A DNA stretch of 64,000 bases from Sphingomonas sp. (GTDB taxonomy: Bacteria > Pseudomonadota > Alphaproteobacteria > Sphingomonadales > Sphingomonadaceae). The notes below the pieces were generated by a model. It was not told the origin of the DNA and searched no databases. It saw only the letters and a program-made list of their open reading frames with translations. Location of the stretch: the NCBI GenBank assembly GCA_965249705.1, contig CBDFMO010000016.1, positions 58,063-122,062 of the forward strand, in the 5' to 3' direction. This document shows, one piece after another, positions 54,753 to 64,000 of the stretch. Numbering within the stretch: position 1 is the first letter of the stretch; every line of letters starts with the position of its first letter. A program made the position numbers and the translations under genes.

Positions 54753-54822
54753 TGTCACTCTAGGATTACAAAATTCAATGTCAATAAATTCTGACACTCG
54801 TTTGTGTCAGGCCTCGGCAACA
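54753..54822. promoter_or_regulatory. Three tandem perfect PpsR operators (TGT-N12-ACA) at the bchC promoter
   Basis: 54753-54770, 54779-54796 and 54805-54822, each separated by 8 bp; minus-strand TTGACA-N16-TAGAGT promoter-like motif inside the array. Confidence 0.9.
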
Positions 54823-55956: not shown

Positions 55957-57480
55957 ATGCCGGAGCGTATCGTCATCGTGGGAGCAGGGGTCGGCGGGCT
56001 GGTATCCGCCGCCCTGCTCGCCGCGCGCGGTCATGACGTCACGGTGCTCGAAGCCCAAGCGATCCCCGGCGGCAAACTGCGCGCCATCGACGGCATCGAT
56101 GCCGGGCCGACGGTGTTCACCCTGCGCACGGTCTTCGACGAAATCTTCGACGCCTGCGGCGCGCGACTCGACGATCATGTGACGCTCGCCCCGGCGACGA
56201 TTCTTGCGCGCCATGCCTGGAGTGACGGTTCGACGCTCGACCTGTTTGCCGATCCCGACGCCAGCGAGCGGGCAATTGCCGATTTTGCCGGCACCGGCGC
56301 GGCGACCGGGTATCGCCGTTTCCGGCGCGAGGCGAAGCGGCTGCACGCGGCGCTCGACCGGCCCTTCCTGCGCGCGGCCAAGACCGACCCGCTGACGCTG
56401 GGCTGGCGGATGGGGTTGTCGGGATTTGCCGATTACTGCACGTTGCGCCCCTATAGCTCGATGTGGCGGGCGCTCGGCAGCTATTTCCCCGATCCGCGGC
56501 TGCGCCAGCTGTTCGGTCGCTATACGACCTATTGCGGGTCGTCGCCGTTCCACACCCCCGCCACGCTGATGCTGATCGCCGATGTCGAGGCGCAGGGCGT
56601 GTGGCTGGTCGACGGCGGGATGAACAGGCTGGGCGCCGCGCTGGCGACGCTGGCCGAACGGGCGGGCGCCACGCTGCGGTACGGCGCGCGGGTCACGCAG
56701 GTCCTGAGCGCGGGCGGCCGCGCGGCCGGGGTCGAAACCGCGCAGGGCGAGCGGTTCGCGGCGGACAGCGTGATCGTCAACGCCGACCCGGCGGCCCTTG
56801 GCACCGGTCGGTTCGGCGCGGCGGCCGCGCGCGCGGTGGGCGCGATGCCGGTGCGGGCGCGATCGCTGTCGGCGCTGGTCTGGCTGGCCCGGGGCACCAC
56901 CGGCGGCCTCCCCCTCACGCGCCACAATGTGTTCTTTTCGGACGATTATCGCGCCGAGTTCGACGCGATCGCGCAGGGCGGCGTGCCGTCGGCGCCCAGC
57001 GTCTATGTCTGCGCGCAGGACGACGACGCGTTCCAGATCATCGTCAATGCCCCTCCGAATGGCGACACCCATAGCTATACCCCGCAGGAGACCGACCGAT
57101 GCGCGACGCACATGCTGGCCACGCTGGAACGATGCGGGCTGAACCTCAGCCCCCAGTCGCTTTCGGTGCTGACGCCGAACGACTTCGAGCGACTCAATCC
57201 CTCGACGGGTGGAGCCCTGTATGGACGGGCCTCGCACGGGTGGGCGGCATCCTTCCGCCGCCAGGGGTCGCGCACCCGGATGCCTGGGCTCTATTGCGCG
57301 GGCGGGAGCACCCATCCGGGCGCGGGCGTACCGATGGCCGCACTTTCGGGACGGCTGGCATCCGAAGCCCTGCTCTCGGACCGCGCTTCGACCGCGAGGT
57401 CGCGGCCGGCGGCTATAGCTGGTGGTACATCGACGCGATCAGCGACGCCGAAGGTCCCGACGGGGGCAAATACGGCCTGA
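55957..57480 (+). CDS. crtD: 1-hydroxycarotenoid 3,4-desaturase
   Basis: FAD motif GAGVGGL, DAGPTVFT, FGRYTTYCGSSPF, HGWAASF, GGSTHPGAGVPMAALSG; RBS AAGGAG. Confidence 0.93.
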   Translation: MPERIVIVGAGVGGLVSAALLAARGHDVTVLEAQAIPGGKLRAIDGIDAGPTVFTLRTVFDEIFDACGARLDDHVTLAPATILARHAWSDGSTLDLFADPDASERAIADFAGTGAATGYRRFRREAKRLHAALDRPFLRAAKTDPLTLGWRMGLSGFADYCTLRPYSSMWRALGSYFPDPRLRQLFGRYTTYCGSSPFHTPATLMLIADVEAQGVWLVDGGMNRLGAALATLAERAGATLRYGARVTQVLSAGGRAAGVETAQGERFAADSVIVNADPAALGTGRFGAAAARAVGAMPVRARSLSALVWLARGTTGGLPLTRHNVFFSDDYRAEFDAIAQGGVPSAPSVYVCAQDDDAFQIIVNAPPNGDTHSYTPQETDRCATHMLATLERCGLNLSPQSLSVLTPNDFERLNPSTGGALYGRASHGWAASFRRQGSRTRMPGLYCAGGSTHPGAGVPMAALSGRLASEALLSDRASTARSRPAAIAGGTSTRSATPKVPTGANTA

Positions 57481-58361
57481 CGATCATCGCCTTCATCGGC
57501 AGCGTGTTCTCGCCCTATTACAAGGCCAGCGGGCGCGCGAACCCGCTCGACCATTGTGCGATCAACGTGGCGCTGACCGGCCCACGGGGCAATCGCTGGG
57601 CGATGACCGAGCGCGGCGAAGGTAGCGTGTGGCGCGACGCGGCGACGCTGTCGATCGGGCCGAGCGCGGTCCACTGGGACGGCAATGCGCTGGTCATCGA
57701 CATCGACGAGCGCTGCGCGGTCATGCCGTTCGGCGTGAAGGGACGCGTACGCGTGACGCCCGAGGTCATGGGGCCGACGGCGTTCGACCTGGGCGGCGGC
57801 CATATGTGGCACCCGATCGCGCCGCGCGCGCGGGTCGAGGCACAGTTTGCGACGCCCGGCATCAGCTGGTCGGGCAACGGCTATTTCGACTCGAACCGGG
57901 GTACCGAGTCGCTCGAGGCGGGCTTTCGCGACTGGCAGTGGTCGCGCGCGCATGTCGGCCCCGATGTCGGCGTGATCTACGAGGGGGTGCGGCGCGACGG
58001 GTCCGAATTCGGCATGGCGCTGCGCTGCGACAAATCGGGGCACTGGGCCGACGAGCCCCTGCCCCCGCGCCAGCGTCTGATGCCGACGCCGTTCGCCATC
58101 GGCCGCAGCACGCGCGCCGATGCGGGCTATCGCGCGCGGGTGGTGAAGACCTGGCTCGACGCGCCCTTCTATGCGCGCTCCGCGCTTCGTACCAAGATGT
58201 TCGGGCACGAGGGCGAAGGGGTCCACGAAAGCCTGTCGCTCGACAGGCTCGTCAACCCTGTGGTGCAGCGGATGCTGCCCTACCGGATGCCGCGCGTGGC
58301 ACTGCCAGGCGGTCGCGCTCGAATCGGCTTGCCAATGGCCATGCGATGGCCGTCGCAATGA
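57294..58361 (+). CDS. crtC: Carotenoid 1,2-hydratase (start uncertain; 5' end overlaps crtD)
   Basis: GGYSWWYIDA, IAFIGSVFSPYY, HxW (GHMWHP), YFD (GYFDSN), DAPFYARS, HESLSLDRL, MLPYRMPR. Confidence 0.9.
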   Translation: MRGREHPSGRGRTDGRTFGTAGIRSPALGPRFDREVAAGGYSWWYIDAISDAEGPDGGKYGLTIIAFIGSVFSPYYKASGRANPLDHCAINVALTGPRGNRWAMTERGEGSVWRDAATLSIGPSAVHWDGNALVIDIDERCAVMPFGVKGRVRVTPEVMGPTAFDLGGGHMWHPIAPRARVEAQFATPGISWSGNGYFDSNRGTESLEAGFRDWQWSRAHVGPDVGVIYEGVRRDGSEFGMALRCDKSGHWADEPLPPRQRLMPTPFAIGRSTRADAGYRARVVKTWLDAPFYARSALRTKMFGHEGEGVHESLSLDRLVNPVVQRMLPYRMPRVALPGGRARIGLPMAMRWPSQ

Positions 58362-59502
58362 GGCAGGCGCCCAGCCCGAGGGGACCGATCGCGCCATAGC
58401 CGCCGAACATTTGGGCGATGATCCCGGCGCCGAGCGAGCCGAACGACTGGAACAAGAGCCAGGTACCGGTCGTCATGACCGCCAGCCGTCCCGTCGCATC
58501 GGTTGAATAGGCAAGCCCGAGGAGCAGCGGATAGGTGATGAACCAGCTCACGTTGAACACGATGAGCGCCGAGGCGAACGCAAGCGGAAGCGATACCGTC
58601 GTCAGCAGCGCGCACGCGACGCCGCAGCTTCCGAGCGCAAGCGCCATCGGCCATGTCCGCGGCAACCGCGCGACGACGGCGACGAGGCTGAGATTGCCGA
58701 GCGCACTCAACAGCGTGGCAACGCTCTGATACTGTCCGAACGTCGTCGCCGACAGGCCGATGGCATGCGCGGCACGCTCCATGAAGGGCCAGATCGCGAG
58801 ACTACCGAATGCGAACAGGGCCATGGCGGCCAGCACGCGCCAGCCGTCGCGCCCGATCGGCGCGGCAGGCGCCTTCGGCGATATCGTGCCCTGTTTCACG
58901 CCGCCCGCATCGGGCAGCAGCAGCGTGCCGAGGCCCAGAACCGCGGATAATCCAGCAAGCGAGGCGAACATGCCGCCCACACCGTAAACAGCCCCGACCA
59001 TCGGCAGGCCGATATTGACGGCCGCGAACAGCGTGGTCTGAAAGGCGATACCTGCCGAGATCGCGCGCGCCGGATGCGCGGTGCGTCCGGCAGCCAGATT
59101 GACGGCACTGTTGAGCAGTCCGAAGCCGAACCCGGTTGCGATACGCCCGGCCAGGAGGAGCGGATACATGGCCGTTGTTGCCGAGAGCAATTGCGCGGCA
59201 ACCACAACGATGGTGGCCGCGAGCCCGATCGTCCGCGCGCTGACCGCCTGCGCGCGCGGGGCGACAAGGAACATGGCGGCGGCATAGGCAAGCGTTTCGG
59301 CCATGCTCCACGCCCCCATCTGGATGGGCGTGAACCCATAGCGATCGATCAGGCCACCGACGAGATAGGTTGTGAAGTTGTTGCCGATATGCGCCGCGCC
59401 GGTCGCAGCACCGATGCCCACGACGACCAGGGTCTGGGCCCGGCGCGACCCGGCCGCCGCCTGGCGCCCGCCGACCGTCCGTTGCGCGTCGACCGCCGTC
59501 AC
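58252..59502 (-). CDS. MFS transporter
   Basis: About 12 hydrophobic segments, LLLAGRIATGFGFG; GTG start overlaps the betC stop (GTGA). Confidence 0.8.
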   Translation of the reverse strand: MTAVDAQRTVGGRQAAAGSRRAQTLVVVGIGAATGAAHIGNNFTTYLVGGLIDRYGFTPIQMGAWSMAETLAYAAAMFLVAPRAQAVSARTIGLAATIVVVAAQLLSATTAMYPLLLAGRIATGFGFGLLNSAVNLAAGRTAHPARAISAGIAFQTTLFAAVNIGLPMVGAVYGVGGMFASLAGLSAVLGLGTLLLPDAGGVKQGTISPKAPAAPIGRDGWRVLAAMALFAFGSLAIWPFMERAAHAIGLSATTFGQYQSVATLLSALGNLSLVAVVARLPRTWPMALALGSCGVACALLTTVSLPLAFASALIVFNVSWFITYPLLLGLAYSTDATGRLAVMTTGTWLLFQSFGSLGAGIIAQMFGGYGAIGPLGLGACLIATAIAWPLASRFERDRLAVPRAASGRAASAAPQG

Positions 59503-61022
59503 GCCTGGCGCACGCGGGGAAAGCGGGCCGAGGCCTCGAGCAGCTCGAGGTCCATGTGGTTGCGGATATACTCGCGCGAAGCATCCCGAGGGGGGTGCCA
59601 GTCCCAGGCCTGATGCGTGCCGATCGCGTTTGCCGCCGCGACCAGGCGGCGGCGGTGCTGACTTGCCAGGACATCGGACTCGATCGCTCCAAGGTCCCAG
59701 CGCGTCGCGACTTCGTGGCGGAATGCCGCAACCACGTCGGCATGGGCCGGATCGCGCGCGCAATTCACCAGCTCGTCGGGATCGGCCGAGAGGTCGAAAA
59801 GCAAGTCAGGATCGCTTGGCGAATGAATGAATTTCCACTGGTTGCGGCGGATCATGACGATCGGCGCAATCGCCCCTTCGCCCAGATATTCGCCAATGAC
59901 CTCGTCATGCCCGGCGCCGTCCGACAAATGGGGAAACAGGCTGCGCCCGTCGAGGGGCATCGTATCGGCATGGCCCAGACCGGCAATCTCGAGCAGGCTC
60001 GGCAGCAGATCGACGAGCGACACGCTCGCATCGATGCTGCGCGGCGCAAAGCGGCCGGGCGCGCTGAAGATGAAGGGAATGCGCGACGCCCCTTCGAAGA
60101 AGTTCATCTTGTACCACAGGCCGCGTTCGCCAAGCATTTCACCATGATCGCTGCACAGGACGATGACCGTGTCGTCGGCCATCCCGCTTTCGGCCAGCGC
60201 GCCGAGAATCAGGCCGATCTGTTCGTCGACGAAGCTGATTGCGCCGTAATAGGCGCGCCGCGCCGCGATGACCTGTTCGTCGGTCACCGCGTCGAGATCG
60301 TTGCCGCAGACGTGCCGGAGACGCAGCGAGTGCGGATCCTGCGCGTCGAGCGGGATCGTGACACGGGGCCCCTCGATCTCCACGCCCTCGTACAGATCCC
60401 AGTAACGCCGGGGGATGGCGAAGGGATCATGGGGGTGCGTGAGCGATGCCACGAGGAAGAACGGCCGCGTGTCGCCGTCCGCCTGGCGAGCGAGGTCGAA
60501 CAGCTTGCGACGCGTCGTGAAGACCACTTCCTCGTCGAAATCGAGCTGGTTGGTCCGGATTGCCGGGCCGGCGGTCAGGACCGAATCCATCGAGTGATAC
60601 CAGCTGGGGCGATCGTCGAAGCGGGTCCAGTCGGGTGTCCAGCCGAAATCCGCAGGATAGATGTCGGTTGTCAGCCGCTCTTCGAAGCCGTGCAGCTGGT
60701 CGGGCCCCACGAAATGCATCTTGCCCGACAGGATCGTGCGATACCCCCCCGCCCGAAGATAATGGGCGACCGTCGGCGTGGTGGCGGCCAGCTCGCACGC
60801 ATTGTCATAGGCACCGATGCGTGACGGGAGCTGGCCCGAAAGCATCGAGAATCGCGAGGGTGCACACAGCGGGCTGTTGCAATAGGCGGACCGGAATAAC
60901 ACGCCTTGCGCCGCCAGCTTTGCCAAGTGCGGCGCCTTGACCGGAGATGTGCCAAGGAACGGGAGGGCGGCTGCGGCGAGCTGGTCCGCCATCAGCATCA
61001 GGATATTTGGTTGTCTGTTCAT
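59499..61022 (-). CDS. betC: Choline-sulfatase
   Basis: PNILMLMADQL, formylglycine motif LCAPSR, GKMHFVGPDQLHGFEERLTTDIYPADFGWTPDW, SDHGEMLGERGLWYKM, YIRNH...LE...RFPR tail. Confidence 0.9.
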   Translation of the reverse strand: MNRQPNILMLMADQLAAAALPFLGTSPVKAPHLAKLAAQGVLFRSAYCNSPLCAPSRFSMLSGQLPSRIGAYDNACELAATTPTVAHYLRAGGYRTILSGKMHFVGPDQLHGFEERLTTDIYPADFGWTPDWTRFDDRPSWYHSMDSVLTAGPAIRTNQLDFDEEVVFTTRRKLFDLARQADGDTRPFFLVASLTHPHDPFAIPRRYWDLYEGVEIEGPRVTIPLDAQDPHSLRLRHVCGNDLDAVTDEQVIAARRAYYGAISFVDEQIGLILGALAESGMADDTVIVLCSDHGEMLGERGLWYKMNFFEGASRIPFIFSAPGRFAPRSIDASVSLVDLLPSLLEIAGLGHADTMPLDGRSLFPHLSDGAGHDEVIGEYLGEGAIAPIVMIRRNQWKFIHSPSDPDLLFDLSADPDELVNCARDPAHADVVAAFRHEVATRWDLGAIESDVLASQHRRRLVAAANAIGTHQAWDWHPPRDASREYIRNHMDLELLEASARFPRVRQA

Positions 61023-61090
61023 CGCCGCAGCTTAACCGGATATTACGCAGACGCTACGCCCTACGATGTTAAATTGTGCTTTTGCGTGTC

Positions 61091-62728
61091 CTAACCCGTC
61101 GCCAGCCGCGCCGTCGCATGGCTTATCGCAATCACGCCGAGGCAGCTTGCCAGCGCCAACCACGGCCACCATCCGGCCCGCCCCGTCAGGTCGCCGCCCC
61201 GTGCTGTTTCTCCGGCCGAGTCGTCGCGGGGGAAGCGGCCGCCGTCCTGGACATAGTGCCGGAACACGAAGACCGGCACGATCAGAAAGCCGGCAATCAG
61301 GCCGTTGCGCAAGGTTCCTGGACCCCAGACGTCCGCGCCGGCGCCGAGGAACGCCATGTTGACGAAGCCGAACCCCGCGCCCAACGCGAGCAGCCAGCTT
61401 GGGCAGCGGAACGGCCGTGCCTGTTCGGGCCGGTCGATGCGGTGAATCCAGCCCGCCTGCAGGTTGAGAAAGTTGAAGATCAGGTAACAGACGTTGGAAA
61501 TCATCAGCACCGCAAAATAATCTGACGCGAGCAACAGGACGAGGTTGAAGCCGAGGTCGGTCCACATCGCCGCCGTCGGTGCGCCATGGCGATTGACCCG
61601 TGACAGATAGCGCGGCAGCCAGCCATCGAGCGAAGCCTGATACAGCGTGCGCGACGAGCCCATCATCGAGGTCATGACGATGAGCAACAACGCCAGGATC
61701 AGCATGGTGACGAACACGTTGGTCACGACGACACCACCGCCGACGATATGCGCCAGCGCCAGCGCCACGCCCGATCCATCATAGATACGCGGATCGAGCA
61801 GGCCGTCGAGGCCAAGCGAGGCCTGGAACGCCAGCGGCACGAGCGTGAAGATAACGATGCAAAGCAGCCCCGAGGCCAGGATCGCGCGGGGCGTATCGCG
61901 CGCCGGGTCGCGGAATTCACGCGTATAACATACCGCTGTTTCGAACCCGTACGTCGACCAGGCCGCGCCGAACATCGCCCCCATCAAGAGCGTCAACCCG
62001 GCGGCGTCCCACGATCCGAACCGGGCGTGGCCGGCAGCGTCGCGGACCAGCGGCAGCAATGGAAAAAGGTGATTTGTCGGCAGGTCGCCCGTCAGCAGCG
62101 GCACGAGCCCGACGAGGATCAGCGGCGCCAGGCAGACCGCGCCGATCAGCTTTTGCGCATGGGCCGCGCGCGCCGCGCCATGATGCTGGAGCGTGAAAGT
62201 CAGCACCAGGAACCCGGCTGCAATGATCGACACGGCGTTGATCCTCAGGCTCAGCCCGGGGCGGATGAAATCCAGGGCGAGCAGCGGGACCTGCCAATGG
62301 TTGATTGCCGCGTCGGGCGCGAACAGGCTTGCCATCACATAGCCCGCGCCCAAGCTGGTCCCGAGCGCCAGGACCGGCGACCAGGCCAGCCAGTTGCACC
62401 AGACCGAAACGGGCGCGACGAACTTGCTGTAGGGCAGCCAGGCCGCGGCGCCATAGACCGAGGCGCCGCCCGACTTGTGCGGAAAGAGCCCGGCGATCTC
62501 GGCATAGACGAACGATTGGATGAACCCCATCAGGATCGAGGCGATCCAGACCACCCAGCTCGGCTGGCCGATCACCGTTGCGATCCCGCCCATCGTCAGC
62601 AGCACGCCCGCAGGCACACCGCTCGACGCCCAGAACGCGCCCTTCCAGTCGAGGCTGCGGTGCAGTCCGCCCGCGGGGGAGCTGATCAGGTTCGCAGCCC
62701 GGGCGAGCGGCAGCTCATCGGCCATCAT
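61091..62728 (-). CDS. APC-family amino acid/amine permease
   Basis: LDWKGAFWASSGVP, YAEIAGLFPHKSGGASVYG, GFETAVCYTREF, GSSRTLYQASLDGWLP; 12 or more TMs. Confidence 0.85.
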   Translation of the reverse strand: MMADELPLARAANLISSPAGGLHRSLDWKGAFWASSGVPAGVLLTMGGIATVIGQPSWVVWIASILMGFIQSFVYAEIAGLFPHKSGGASVYGAAAWLPYSKFVAPVSVWCNWLAWSPVLALGTSLGAGYVMASLFAPDAAINHWQVPLLALDFIRPGLSLRINAVSIIAAGFLVLTFTLQHHGAARAAHAQKLIGAVCLAPLILVGLVPLLTGDLPTNHLFPLLPLVRDAAGHARFGSWDAAGLTLLMGAMFGAAWSTYGFETAVCYTREFRDPARDTPRAILASGLLCIVIFTLVPLAFQASLGLDGLLDPRIYDGSGVALALAHIVGGGVVVTNVFVTMLILALLLIVMTSMMGSSRTLYQASLDGWLPRYLSRVNRHGAPTAAMWTDLGFNLVLLLASDYFAVLMISNVCYLIFNFLNLQAGWIHRIDRPEQARPFRCPSWLLALGAGFGFVNMAFLGAGADVWGPGTLRNGLIAGFLIVPVFVFRHYVQDGGRFPRDDSAGETARGGDLTGRAGWWPWLALASCLGVIAISHATARLATG

Positions 62729-62843
62729 CGTTGCGCTTCCCCCCATCGCCCTCGACGGAGTATGCCGCGTTCGGGCGCGGCAGCAACTGCTTGCCGGATA
62801 TTCGGGAAACAGGCGCTATGTGCCGGCGGTCCGGTTCATTGCG

Positions 62844-62981
62844 TCAGGATCGGTCGTCGTCTCGCTTTTCCGGCTGGTCGTCGGACTTCATCGTGCGCAG
62901 CGACCGCAGCTGCCAGAAGCCGAACCCGAACACGATCAACAGCGTCAGCCCCGCTTCGATGATCCCGAAATAGCCCTTCAT
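62844..62981 (-). CDS. Small 45-aa single-TM protein coupled to bchO (not in ORF track)
   Basis: Manual translation: MKGYFGIIEAGLTLLIVFGFGFWQLRSLRTMKSDDQPEKRDDDRS*; ATG overlaps the bchO stop (ATGA). Confidence 0.7.
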   Translation of the reverse strand: MKGYFGIIEAGLTLLIVFGFGFWQLRSLRTMKSDDQPEKRDDDRS

Positions 62982-63865
62982 GCGGCTTTCCCCTCGGCAG
63001 CAAGGATAGCATGGGTGCGTGCAAATTGCAGGATGTGGCCGACCGCCAGCGCGGGCGCCTCCTCATGTGCGAGATGGCCCAGTCCCGGCAGTATCTCCAG
63101 CGTGCAATCCGGGATCAGGCCAGCCGATTCGCGGGCAGCCGCCACGGGAATGGCAACATCCCCGTCGCCGTGCAGCATCAGCATCGGGCCGGAAAGCAGC
63201 GGGAGGTCGCGCTTCAACGGCAGCAGATCCCAATCGGCCATCATGCCGATCGCGCCCGCGCAATGCGCCGACGTGCCGAACAGCCGCGCATAGGCGGCGA
63301 TCCCCGCGGCGTCGATCGTCGATCCCGTGCTGCGCGCCAGGAACCGTTCGACGGCGCCCGGCCCTCGCGCGACCGACGCAAAGAGGTGTGGCGCGAGCGG
63401 ATTGACGAACAACAGCTTCGCCATGGTCGGAAAAAGGTGCTGTGCAATTCCGGGAAAGGGCAGCAGCGCCGGCGCGACGCCGACAATGCCGGCCGGCTGG
63501 ACCATCCGGTTGATGACCATCCGGATGGCGACTGCCGCCCCCGCCGAATGGCCCACGACGAGCACGGGATCGGCCTGCAGCTCGGACAAGAGATAGGCGA
63601 TCGCCCGGGCGATACCGGGCATGGTCAGCCCATTCGGCGGACGGCCCTTGGTAAAGCCATGCCCCGGCAGGTCGGGCGCGATCACGCGAAAATGCTGCGC
63701 CAGCGGATGCAGCATATCGCGCCAGCTGTGGGTCGCGGCACCAGTACCGTGCAGGAGGAGCAACACCGGCCCGTCGCCGGCGATCTGCACATGCCAGTCG
63801 ATGCCGCCGAGCCGCACCGATTCGCTGTTCATGCAGTTTGGCCAGCCGGCGGGTGGCAGACTCAT
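62978..63865 (-). CDS. bchO: Alpha/beta hydrolase BchO (Mg-chelatase accessory)
   Basis: LLLHGTGAATHSWR, PDLPGHGF, nucleophile elbow GHSAG, GHLAHEE; directly after bchD. Confidence 0.9.
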   Translation of the reverse strand: MSLPPAGWPNCMNSESVRLGGIDWHVQIAGDGPVLLLLHGTGAATHSWRDMLHPLAQHFRVIAPDLPGHGFTKGRPPNGLTMPGIARAIAYLLSELQADPVLVVGHSAGAAVAIRMVINRMVQPAGIVGVAPALLPFPGIAQHLFPTMAKLLFVNPLAPHLFASVARGPGAVERFLARSTGSTIDAAGIAAYARLFGTSAHCAGAIGMMADWDLLPLKRDLPLLSGPMLMLHGDGDVAIPVAAARESAGLIPDCTLEILPGLGHLAHEEAPALAVGHILQFARTHAILAAEGKAA

Positions 63866-64000
63866 CGGACCGCCTTCACTGCGCCCGCCAGTCCGGCGGC
63901 GTCGGCACGGGGCAAGGGCAGGTAGCGCGCGTGCATGGCGGTTGCGAGTTCGGCGCCCTCCGGTCGCGGCCGGCTGGAAATATCGACGAAGACCGCCCCG
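63862..64000 (-). CDS. bchD: Magnesium chelatase subunit D, C-terminal fragment (gene continues beyond window)
   Basis: Manual translation: GAVFVDISSRPRPEGAELATAMHARYLPLPRADAAGLAGAVKAVR*, matching the BchD vWA terminus; stop overlaps bchO ATG. Confidence 0.85.
   Translation of the reverse strand, partial: GAVFVDISSRPRPEGAELATAMHARYLPLPRADAAGLAGAVKAVR

Follow-up and report, generated by a model that had tools for sequence, protein, structure and literature searches.

Photosynthesis gene clusters of aerobic anoxygenic phototrophs have been reported to contain non-photosynthetic ('unrelated') genes (Zheng et al., 2011; PMC3176799). As for the uptake of choline-O-sulfate, the fungal transporter Soa1 provides a precedent within the major facilitator superfamily (MFS) (PMC5303821), and dedicated bacterial choline-O-sulfate transporters were still unknown according to a study of 2025 (PMC12442346). 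Here we describe a locus that bears on both subjects. The window, by which we mean the whole stretch of 64,000 nucleotides that was analysed (positions 58063–122062 of contig C16 of a Sphingomonas sp. genome, GCA_965249705.1, here G000), holds part of a photosynthesis cluster, and here genes for an APC-superfamily permease, a choline-O-sulfatase (betC) and an MFS transporter lie between the carotenoid gene crtC and the bch genes. We consider it likely that this 4.5-kb stretch (about 58300–62843 of the window) is strain-specific accessory cargo, assembled from two segments (betC-MFS and APC) of a gene pool that floats within the genus, and that it is not part of the photosynthesis programme. 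It is best read as an accessory cassette for the acquisition of choline-O-sulfate and choline, lodged in a permissive hot spot.

Gene identities were assigned from an open reading frame (ORF) listing with translations and from Pfam and NCBIfam scans of the window proteins. On the minus strand bchI, bchD and bchO are followed by a 45-codon membrane ORF, the APC permease gene (61091–62746), betC (59499–61022) and the MFS gene (58252–59502), and this series converges on the plus-strand genes crtD and crtC. The APC and betC genes are separated by 68 nt, the betC stop codon and the GTG start of the MFS gene share the sequence GTGA, and the MFS and crtC genes meet head-on, their 3′ ends overlapping by 110 nt (58252–58361). 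An earlier reading of this DNA, made from its letters and referred to below as the original prediction, had described the same gene order, orientation, GTGA coupling and 68-nt gap, and ORF listing, translation and profile scans bear it out; it had also seen the head-on ending at crtC, to which we add the overlap. Its gap of 115 nt between the small ORF and the APC gene is right if translation starts at the ATG at 62728, evidently its choice, and becomes 97 nt if counted from the first ATG (62746).

The distribution of genes at the crtC–bchO junction among related genomes suggests how the module came to be placed. We located crtC and bchO in genomes of the same genus, 17 of which, G000 included, carry both on one contig. 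In 13 of the 17, crtC adjoins bchO and its small ORF within about 190 nt, to the point that the stop codons of crtC and the small ORF overlap in one genome (G024). In the remaining four the junction is filled in four different ways: by genes for an M28 peptidase and a PEP-CTERM protein in G018 (locus L105), whose crtC is 97% identical to that of G000, by that for an M48 peptidase in G020 (L106), by that for a Uma2 nuclease in G022 (L108), and by the APC-betC-MFS module in G000. The cargo of G000, G018 and G020 is placed between the stop codons of crtC and the small ORF, while the Uma2 gene of G022 separates bchO from the small ORF, and the sister-genome cargo occurs in either orientation. None of the 16 other congeners has the module at this site, and by conserved position it does not belong to the core photosynthesis cluster, being absent from the related clusters examined. 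In this Sphingomonas-like genus, insertions recur at the place where crtC meets the small ORF linked to bchO, a hot spot whose tolerance would stem from its position at the 3′ ends of two converging transcription units.

The limits of the insert could be traced by blastn. Homology to the clusters of relatives ends at 58295–58299 on the crtC side and resumes at about 62843, the stop codon of the small ORF. A left-hand joint at the crtC 3′ end (58300–58315) leads into segment A (58316–61068), which comprises the MFS gene, betC and 46 nt of conserved sequence upstream of betC, and shares 83% DNA identity with a cassette of the closest relative, G018, that is situated on contig C4 amid genes for an acyl-CoA dehydrogenase, an HpcH-type lyase, a mesaconyl-CoA hydratase and an AIM24 protein. 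Beyond a 22-nt joint (61069–61090), segment B (61091–62801) comprises the APC gene and its 55-nt conserved 5′ region; its counterpart in G018, with 86% DNA identity, is found on contig C3, some 750 kb away from the photosynthesis cluster of that genome. The 42 nt of the right-hand joint (62802–62843) match neither the cluster nor the APC locus of relatives. Judged by these matches, the insert is a composite of two independent segments, each corresponding to a separate non-photosynthetic locus in G018; G000 has one copy of each of the cargo genes.

The left-hand joint has altered both of the genes that meet there. By comparison with G018 and G020, the native C-terminus of CrtC, ...MPRVV*, has become ...MPRV-ALPGGRARIGLPMAMRWPSQ*, and homology of the MFS gene to its orthologue stops at 58316, the last 19 codons being the antisense of the crtC 3′ end. 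These new tails, each read from the antisense strand of the other gene, are a direct scar of the recombination joint. We found no meaningful flanking repeats between 58100 and 63100, and an Rfam scan of the insert returned no matches and no tRNA. No integrase or transposase is present among the large ORFs of the insert, all of which are accounted for by the three genes, though no search was aimed at transposases as such. The GC and GC3 (third codon position) contents of the cargo equal those of neighbouring genes and of the genome, so that transfer from a close relative is neither supported nor excluded; taken with the 83–86% identity to G018, they point to reshuffling within the accessory gene pool of the genus, presumably by illegitimate recombination.

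Two other histories were considered and set aside. For a translocation leaving an 'empty donor site', no clean donor site can be defined, since the sequences that flank the two segments in G018 correspond to other variable regions in G000. Descent from a single ancestral APC-betC-MFS unit would be suggested by a metagenome-assembled genome (MAG) of Novosphingobium (L174 and L214) with the same gene order, but its APC–betC spacer is non-homologous, and the genes are not together where the nearest orthologues occur (in G018 and at L204 and L213); the order is therefore judged to have arisen independently.

The rarity of betC is consistent with this picture. The gene occurs in two of 25 genomes of the genus and in nine of 401 of the family. 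Only four betC-positive genomes also encode a true BchO, namely G000, G018, G288 and G333, and the latter three have it far from bchO, at distances of about 2.0 and 2.8 Mb or on a different contig. The original prediction had counted a linkage of betC to the photosynthesis cluster confined to this strain as evidence against its own proposal, and such is the case: the linkage is found in none of the 16 other congeners and in none of the three other genomes with both betC and BchO. A neutral insertion, which the original prediction had held in reserve, fits the data best, given the variable junction, the rare and elsewhere unlinked betC, and the mosaic segments.

The function of the cassette can be approached through its enzyme. 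BetC aligns over its full length with the structurally characterised choline sulfatase of Sinorhizobium, PDB entry 6FNY (E = 5e-152), including the formylglycine motif (C-x-P-x-R), where SPLCAPSR aligns with SPLCAPAR of 6FNY; it also contains the Choline_sulf_C domain (PF12411, 72.5 bits) and lies above the equivalog cut-off of TIGR03417 (772.9 bits against 433.45). We take the product to be a choline-O-sulfatase, with hydrolysis of choline-O-sulfate as its predicted activity. A gene with the formylglycine-generating enzyme (FGE) domain (PF03781, 182 bits) is present in the genome at C17:321714–322535. Judged by eye, BetC has no signal peptide, and it is therefore taken to be cytoplasmic, in which case choline-O-sulfate must be imported to reach it. 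As the original prediction had stated, there is no BetA or BetB candidate in the range of contig C16 covered by the window; betI and transposases were not specifically searched there. A BetA equivalog is encoded on the same contig about 180 kb from betC (C16:299778–301448; 822 bits, cut-off 732), adjoining GbcA-like and DMGDH-like genes. With the full-length 6FNY match, the SPLCAPSR motif and both FGE and betA in the genome, the earlier proposal of a module for organosulfate and quaternary-amine uptake and hydrolysis is upheld and made more precise.

Around betA, between about 245000 and 303000 of contig C16 and thus outside the window, there are several GcvT-domain demethylase or oxidase genes (at 247906, 274015, 276435, 288969 and 294595), betA itself and a second GMC/ALDH pair, and the whole looks like a methylated-amine catabolic region.

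The MFS gene (PF07690, MFS_1, 43.8 bits against a gathering threshold of 33.4) is bound to betC well beyond this genome. Among 24 loci with homologues of the transporter, 19 have betC just upstream, and this holds down to 41% identity (Rhodoblastus, Rhodopseudomonas). In six of the 19, betC and the MFS gene are separated by one gene of about 2.4 kb, which encodes a TonB-dependent receptor in both of the two cases that were scanned. An outer-membrane receptor, an inner-membrane carrier and a cytoplasmic hydrolase form a classic layout for the use of a substrate. Because of this layout and the linkage to betC, we infer that the MFS protein imports choline-O-sulfate.

The APC permease (PF13520, 238 bits) can be placed in a similar way. 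Examination of the 80 loci with its closest homologues revealed a TonB-dependent receptor near the permease gene in 39, betA in 37 (812 bits, above cut-off) and betB in 35 (781 bits, likewise above cut-off), together with GbcA-like (17), DMGDH-like (16), soxB (16) and BCCT transporter (10) genes. APC and betC are neighbours independently in three other lineages, i.e. Novosphingobium, Paraburkholderia and gammaproteobacterial MAGs. In Paraburkholderia the two are about 2.2 kb apart, in the company of a choline-binding-protein-like gene, purU and a TIGR03418 choline-sulfate regulator, and in the gammaproteobacterial MAGs they lie within about 6.5 kb of each other, with genes in between that resemble dgcAB and etf by N-terminal sequence alone. 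Given the bet neighbours and the lack of a trimethylamine N-oxide (TMAO) demethylase in the genome, the protein would be a permease for choline or a related quaternary amine, of the kind found in choline-catabolic clusters.

Together, these assignments suggest a short pathway. Choline-O-sulfate would cross the inner membrane through the betC-coupled MFS carrier, and cytoplasmic BetC, once activated by formylglycine formation, would split it into choline and sulfate. The APC permease may import choline itself or a close quaternary-amine analogue. Choline could then be oxidised by the unlinked BetA, the product passing to the demethylation enzymes encoded by the neighbouring GbcA-like and DMGDH-like genes, and the released sulfate would enter assimilation.

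Several other explanations must be weighed against that of an accessory choline-O-sulfate and choline cassette. The first concerns the existence of the arrangement, which could in principle be a mis-assembly or binning artefact, as G000 is an assembly of 17 contigs and the sequencing runs that contain it are all metagenomic contig sets, of DNA or unknown type. However, the joints lie well within a contig of 651 kb, and separate Logan contigs of metagenome run X1, which may be the sample behind the assembly, span the crtC/MFS (58091–59888), betC/APC (60574–61352) and APC/small ORF/bchO (62549–64000) joints with 0 to 5 mismatches. The arrangement is therefore no assembly chimera; the C-termini of crtC and the MFS gene, chimeric yet open, are moreover coherent with a genuine joint, and we regard an artefact as extremely improbable. 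The identity of the APC protein invites a different objection: it exceeds the cut-off of the 'TMAO permease' equivalog NF053774 (766 bits against 690), and may thus be a true TmoP, TMAO uptake having been joined to choline-sulfate hydrolysis by an accident of insertion. Yet no TMAO demethylase (Tdm) is encoded in the genome, where NF053776 scores no higher than 194 bits (cut-off 1100), and the 80 closest homologues belong to betA/betB/DMGDH clusters, repeatedly beside betC. We consider a TMAO permease unlikely, and the family name is probably too narrow for the Sphingomonadaceae clade (e.g. L114, L119) that sits in clusters of betA, betB, TonB receptor and DMGDH genes.

A third explanation, favoured by the original prediction, has the module co-transcribed and co-regulated with Mg-chelatase, so that the synthesis of bacteriochlorophyll and carotenoids would draw on it for glycine, one-carbon units or sulfur. 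The module does share the orientation of bchIDO, the promoter and terminator scan predicted no intrinsic terminator in the 97-nt spacer, the native upstream regions are cut to about 50 nt, and BetA and demethylation genes are at hand in the genome. The palindrome recognised by PpsR/CrtJ, TGT-N12-ACA, tells a different story: the pattern occurs nine times in the window, where chance alone would give 4.7 occurrences, among them three exact palindromes in tandem at the crtF/bchC boundary (54753–54822) and one in crtC (57505), but none between 58300 and 63000, hence none in or upstream of the module. The 5′ regions of the APC gene, with a TTGCTG-N16-CATACT element, and of betC, with a TAATAT box about 24 nt before the ATG, are both conserved with orthologues outside photosynthesis clusters, and because some 50 nt are so conserved per segment, each segment is suggested to carry its own promoter. 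With the linkage unique to G000 among 17 congeners and four genomes having betC and BchO, unrelated cargo in either orientation at the same site in sister genomes, and orthologues of both segments in non-photosynthetic contexts, we find a functional or regulatory tie to Mg-chelatase and pigment synthesis highly unlikely, and that part of the original prediction is not sustained. A narrower variant, likewise unlikely, is that in this strain alone the bchIDO transcription unit has taken over the cassette, so that PpsR, oxygen and light would switch the uptake of choline-O-sulfate and choline along with the making of bacteriochlorophyll. If true, this would be an accidental rewiring of regulation that ties the use of an algal or plant osmolyte to the phototrophic state.

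Some observations do weigh against the accessory, independently regulated cassette that we prefer. Read-through from bchIDO may occur, given the common direction, the 97-nt spacer and the lack of a predicted terminator, and the original promoters may have been cut short, since each segment brought along no more than about 50 nt of its own upstream sequence. The arrival of the cargo at the junction is not explained by any transposase, integrase, tRNA or flanking repeat. On the metabolic side, the genome has no BetB orthologue above cut-off, and with betA about 180 kb away the arrangement is not of the betICBA type. The DMGDH-like gene (C16:294592–297097) matches its homologue in two frames, the pieces meeting at about 296290; the gene may be frameshifted or a pseudogene, or the sequence may be in error here.

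For the biology of photosynthesis the module is of little import, being a passenger. A hot spot defined to the nucleotide, on the other hand, shows how photosynthesis clusters acquire unrelated genes. The betC-coupled MFS protein, sometimes accompanied by a TonB receptor gene, and the betC-associated APC permease are testable candidates for carriers of choline-O-sulfate and choline.

The genes on either side of the insert were characterised as well. On the bch side, bchO (62978–63865, minus strand; TIGR03056, 292 bits, cut-off 173) encodes an alpha/beta hydrolase that is a regular member of such clusters, and it is preceded by bchD, the 3′ end of which (63862–64000, minus strand) runs past the end of the window and which, on the ORF extended in its own genome, scores 607 bits against 571 for NF009943 (Mg-chelatase subunit D). 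Upstream of bchD, also on the minus strand and beyond the window end, is bchI, with Mg_chelatase and AAA_lid_2 domains. Beyond bchIDO the extended genome shows genes for KDG kinase and then uxaC, and because these come next, the photosynthesis cluster ends with bchIDO, the module being placed between this unit and the cluster body. The picture given by the original prediction, of a module embedded in the cluster, is corrected to the extent that the insert sits one operon inside the cluster edge.

The small ORF downstream of bchO (62844–62981, minus strand) has an ATG that overlaps the bchO stop codon (ATGA) and encodes a single-pass membrane protein of 45 amino acids (MKGYFGIIEAGLTLLIVFGFGFWQLRSL...) that shares the core IE.G...GF..WQL.S with homologues in the genus. 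These homologues sit directly after bchO across the genus, and DNA homology with relatives continues from bchO to about 62843; the ORF belongs to the native cluster rather than to the insert, and seems to be a small photosynthesis-cluster gene that has gone unannotated. On the crt side, crtC (57099–58361, plus strand, start codon uncertain) has its best NCBIfam match in NF045922 at 279 bits, below the cut-off of 400, and crtD, on the same strand (NF045637, 641 bits), ends at 57480. The conserved N-terminal region of CrtC (FDREVAAGGYSWWY...) is already encoded before the crtD stop codon is reached (57099–57480), so that the two genes share about 100 nt or more, read in different frames.

How, then, does this locus compare with described systems? 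The enzyme itself is close to BetC of S. meliloti (6FNY, 6G5Z) in its full-length homology, formylglycine motif, Choline_sulf_C domain and a TIGR03417 score well above cut-off. The surroundings differ from the betICBA operon of that species, as betB and betA are not adjacent to betC and betC is translationally coupled to an MFS gene instead. A betC gene set apart from betBA and provided with uptake components of its own recalls the Pseudomonas and Burkholderia loci, in which betC is accompanied by genes for a choline-sulfate binding protein and a regulator of the LysR type (BetR/CosR, TIGR03418); in the present module neither a LysR regulator nor a periplasmic binding protein is found, and uptake is assigned to secondary carriers (MFS, APC).

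The transporters have their own counterparts. Uptake loci of Sphingomonadaceae and Caulobacterales combine a TonB receptor with an MFS carrier, and among the six relatives in which a gene of about 2.4 kb separates betC from the MFS gene, the two loci that were scanned are of this kind, whereas the copy in the window lacks a receptor gene. The APC permease shares with TmoP of Methylocella silvestris its superfamily and a score above the NF053774 equivalog cut-off, yet it differs in that the genome has no Tdm and that the neighbours of its clade are betA, betB, DMGDH and TonB receptor genes, not tdm or dmm. As for its position, the module resembles the cases of Zheng et al. (2011; PMC3176799) in that non-photosynthesis genes interrupt the cluster at the boundary of conserved blocks (bchIDO, crt); it differs from them in that the insertion point is mapped here to the nucleotide, with different cargo at the same junction in sister species.

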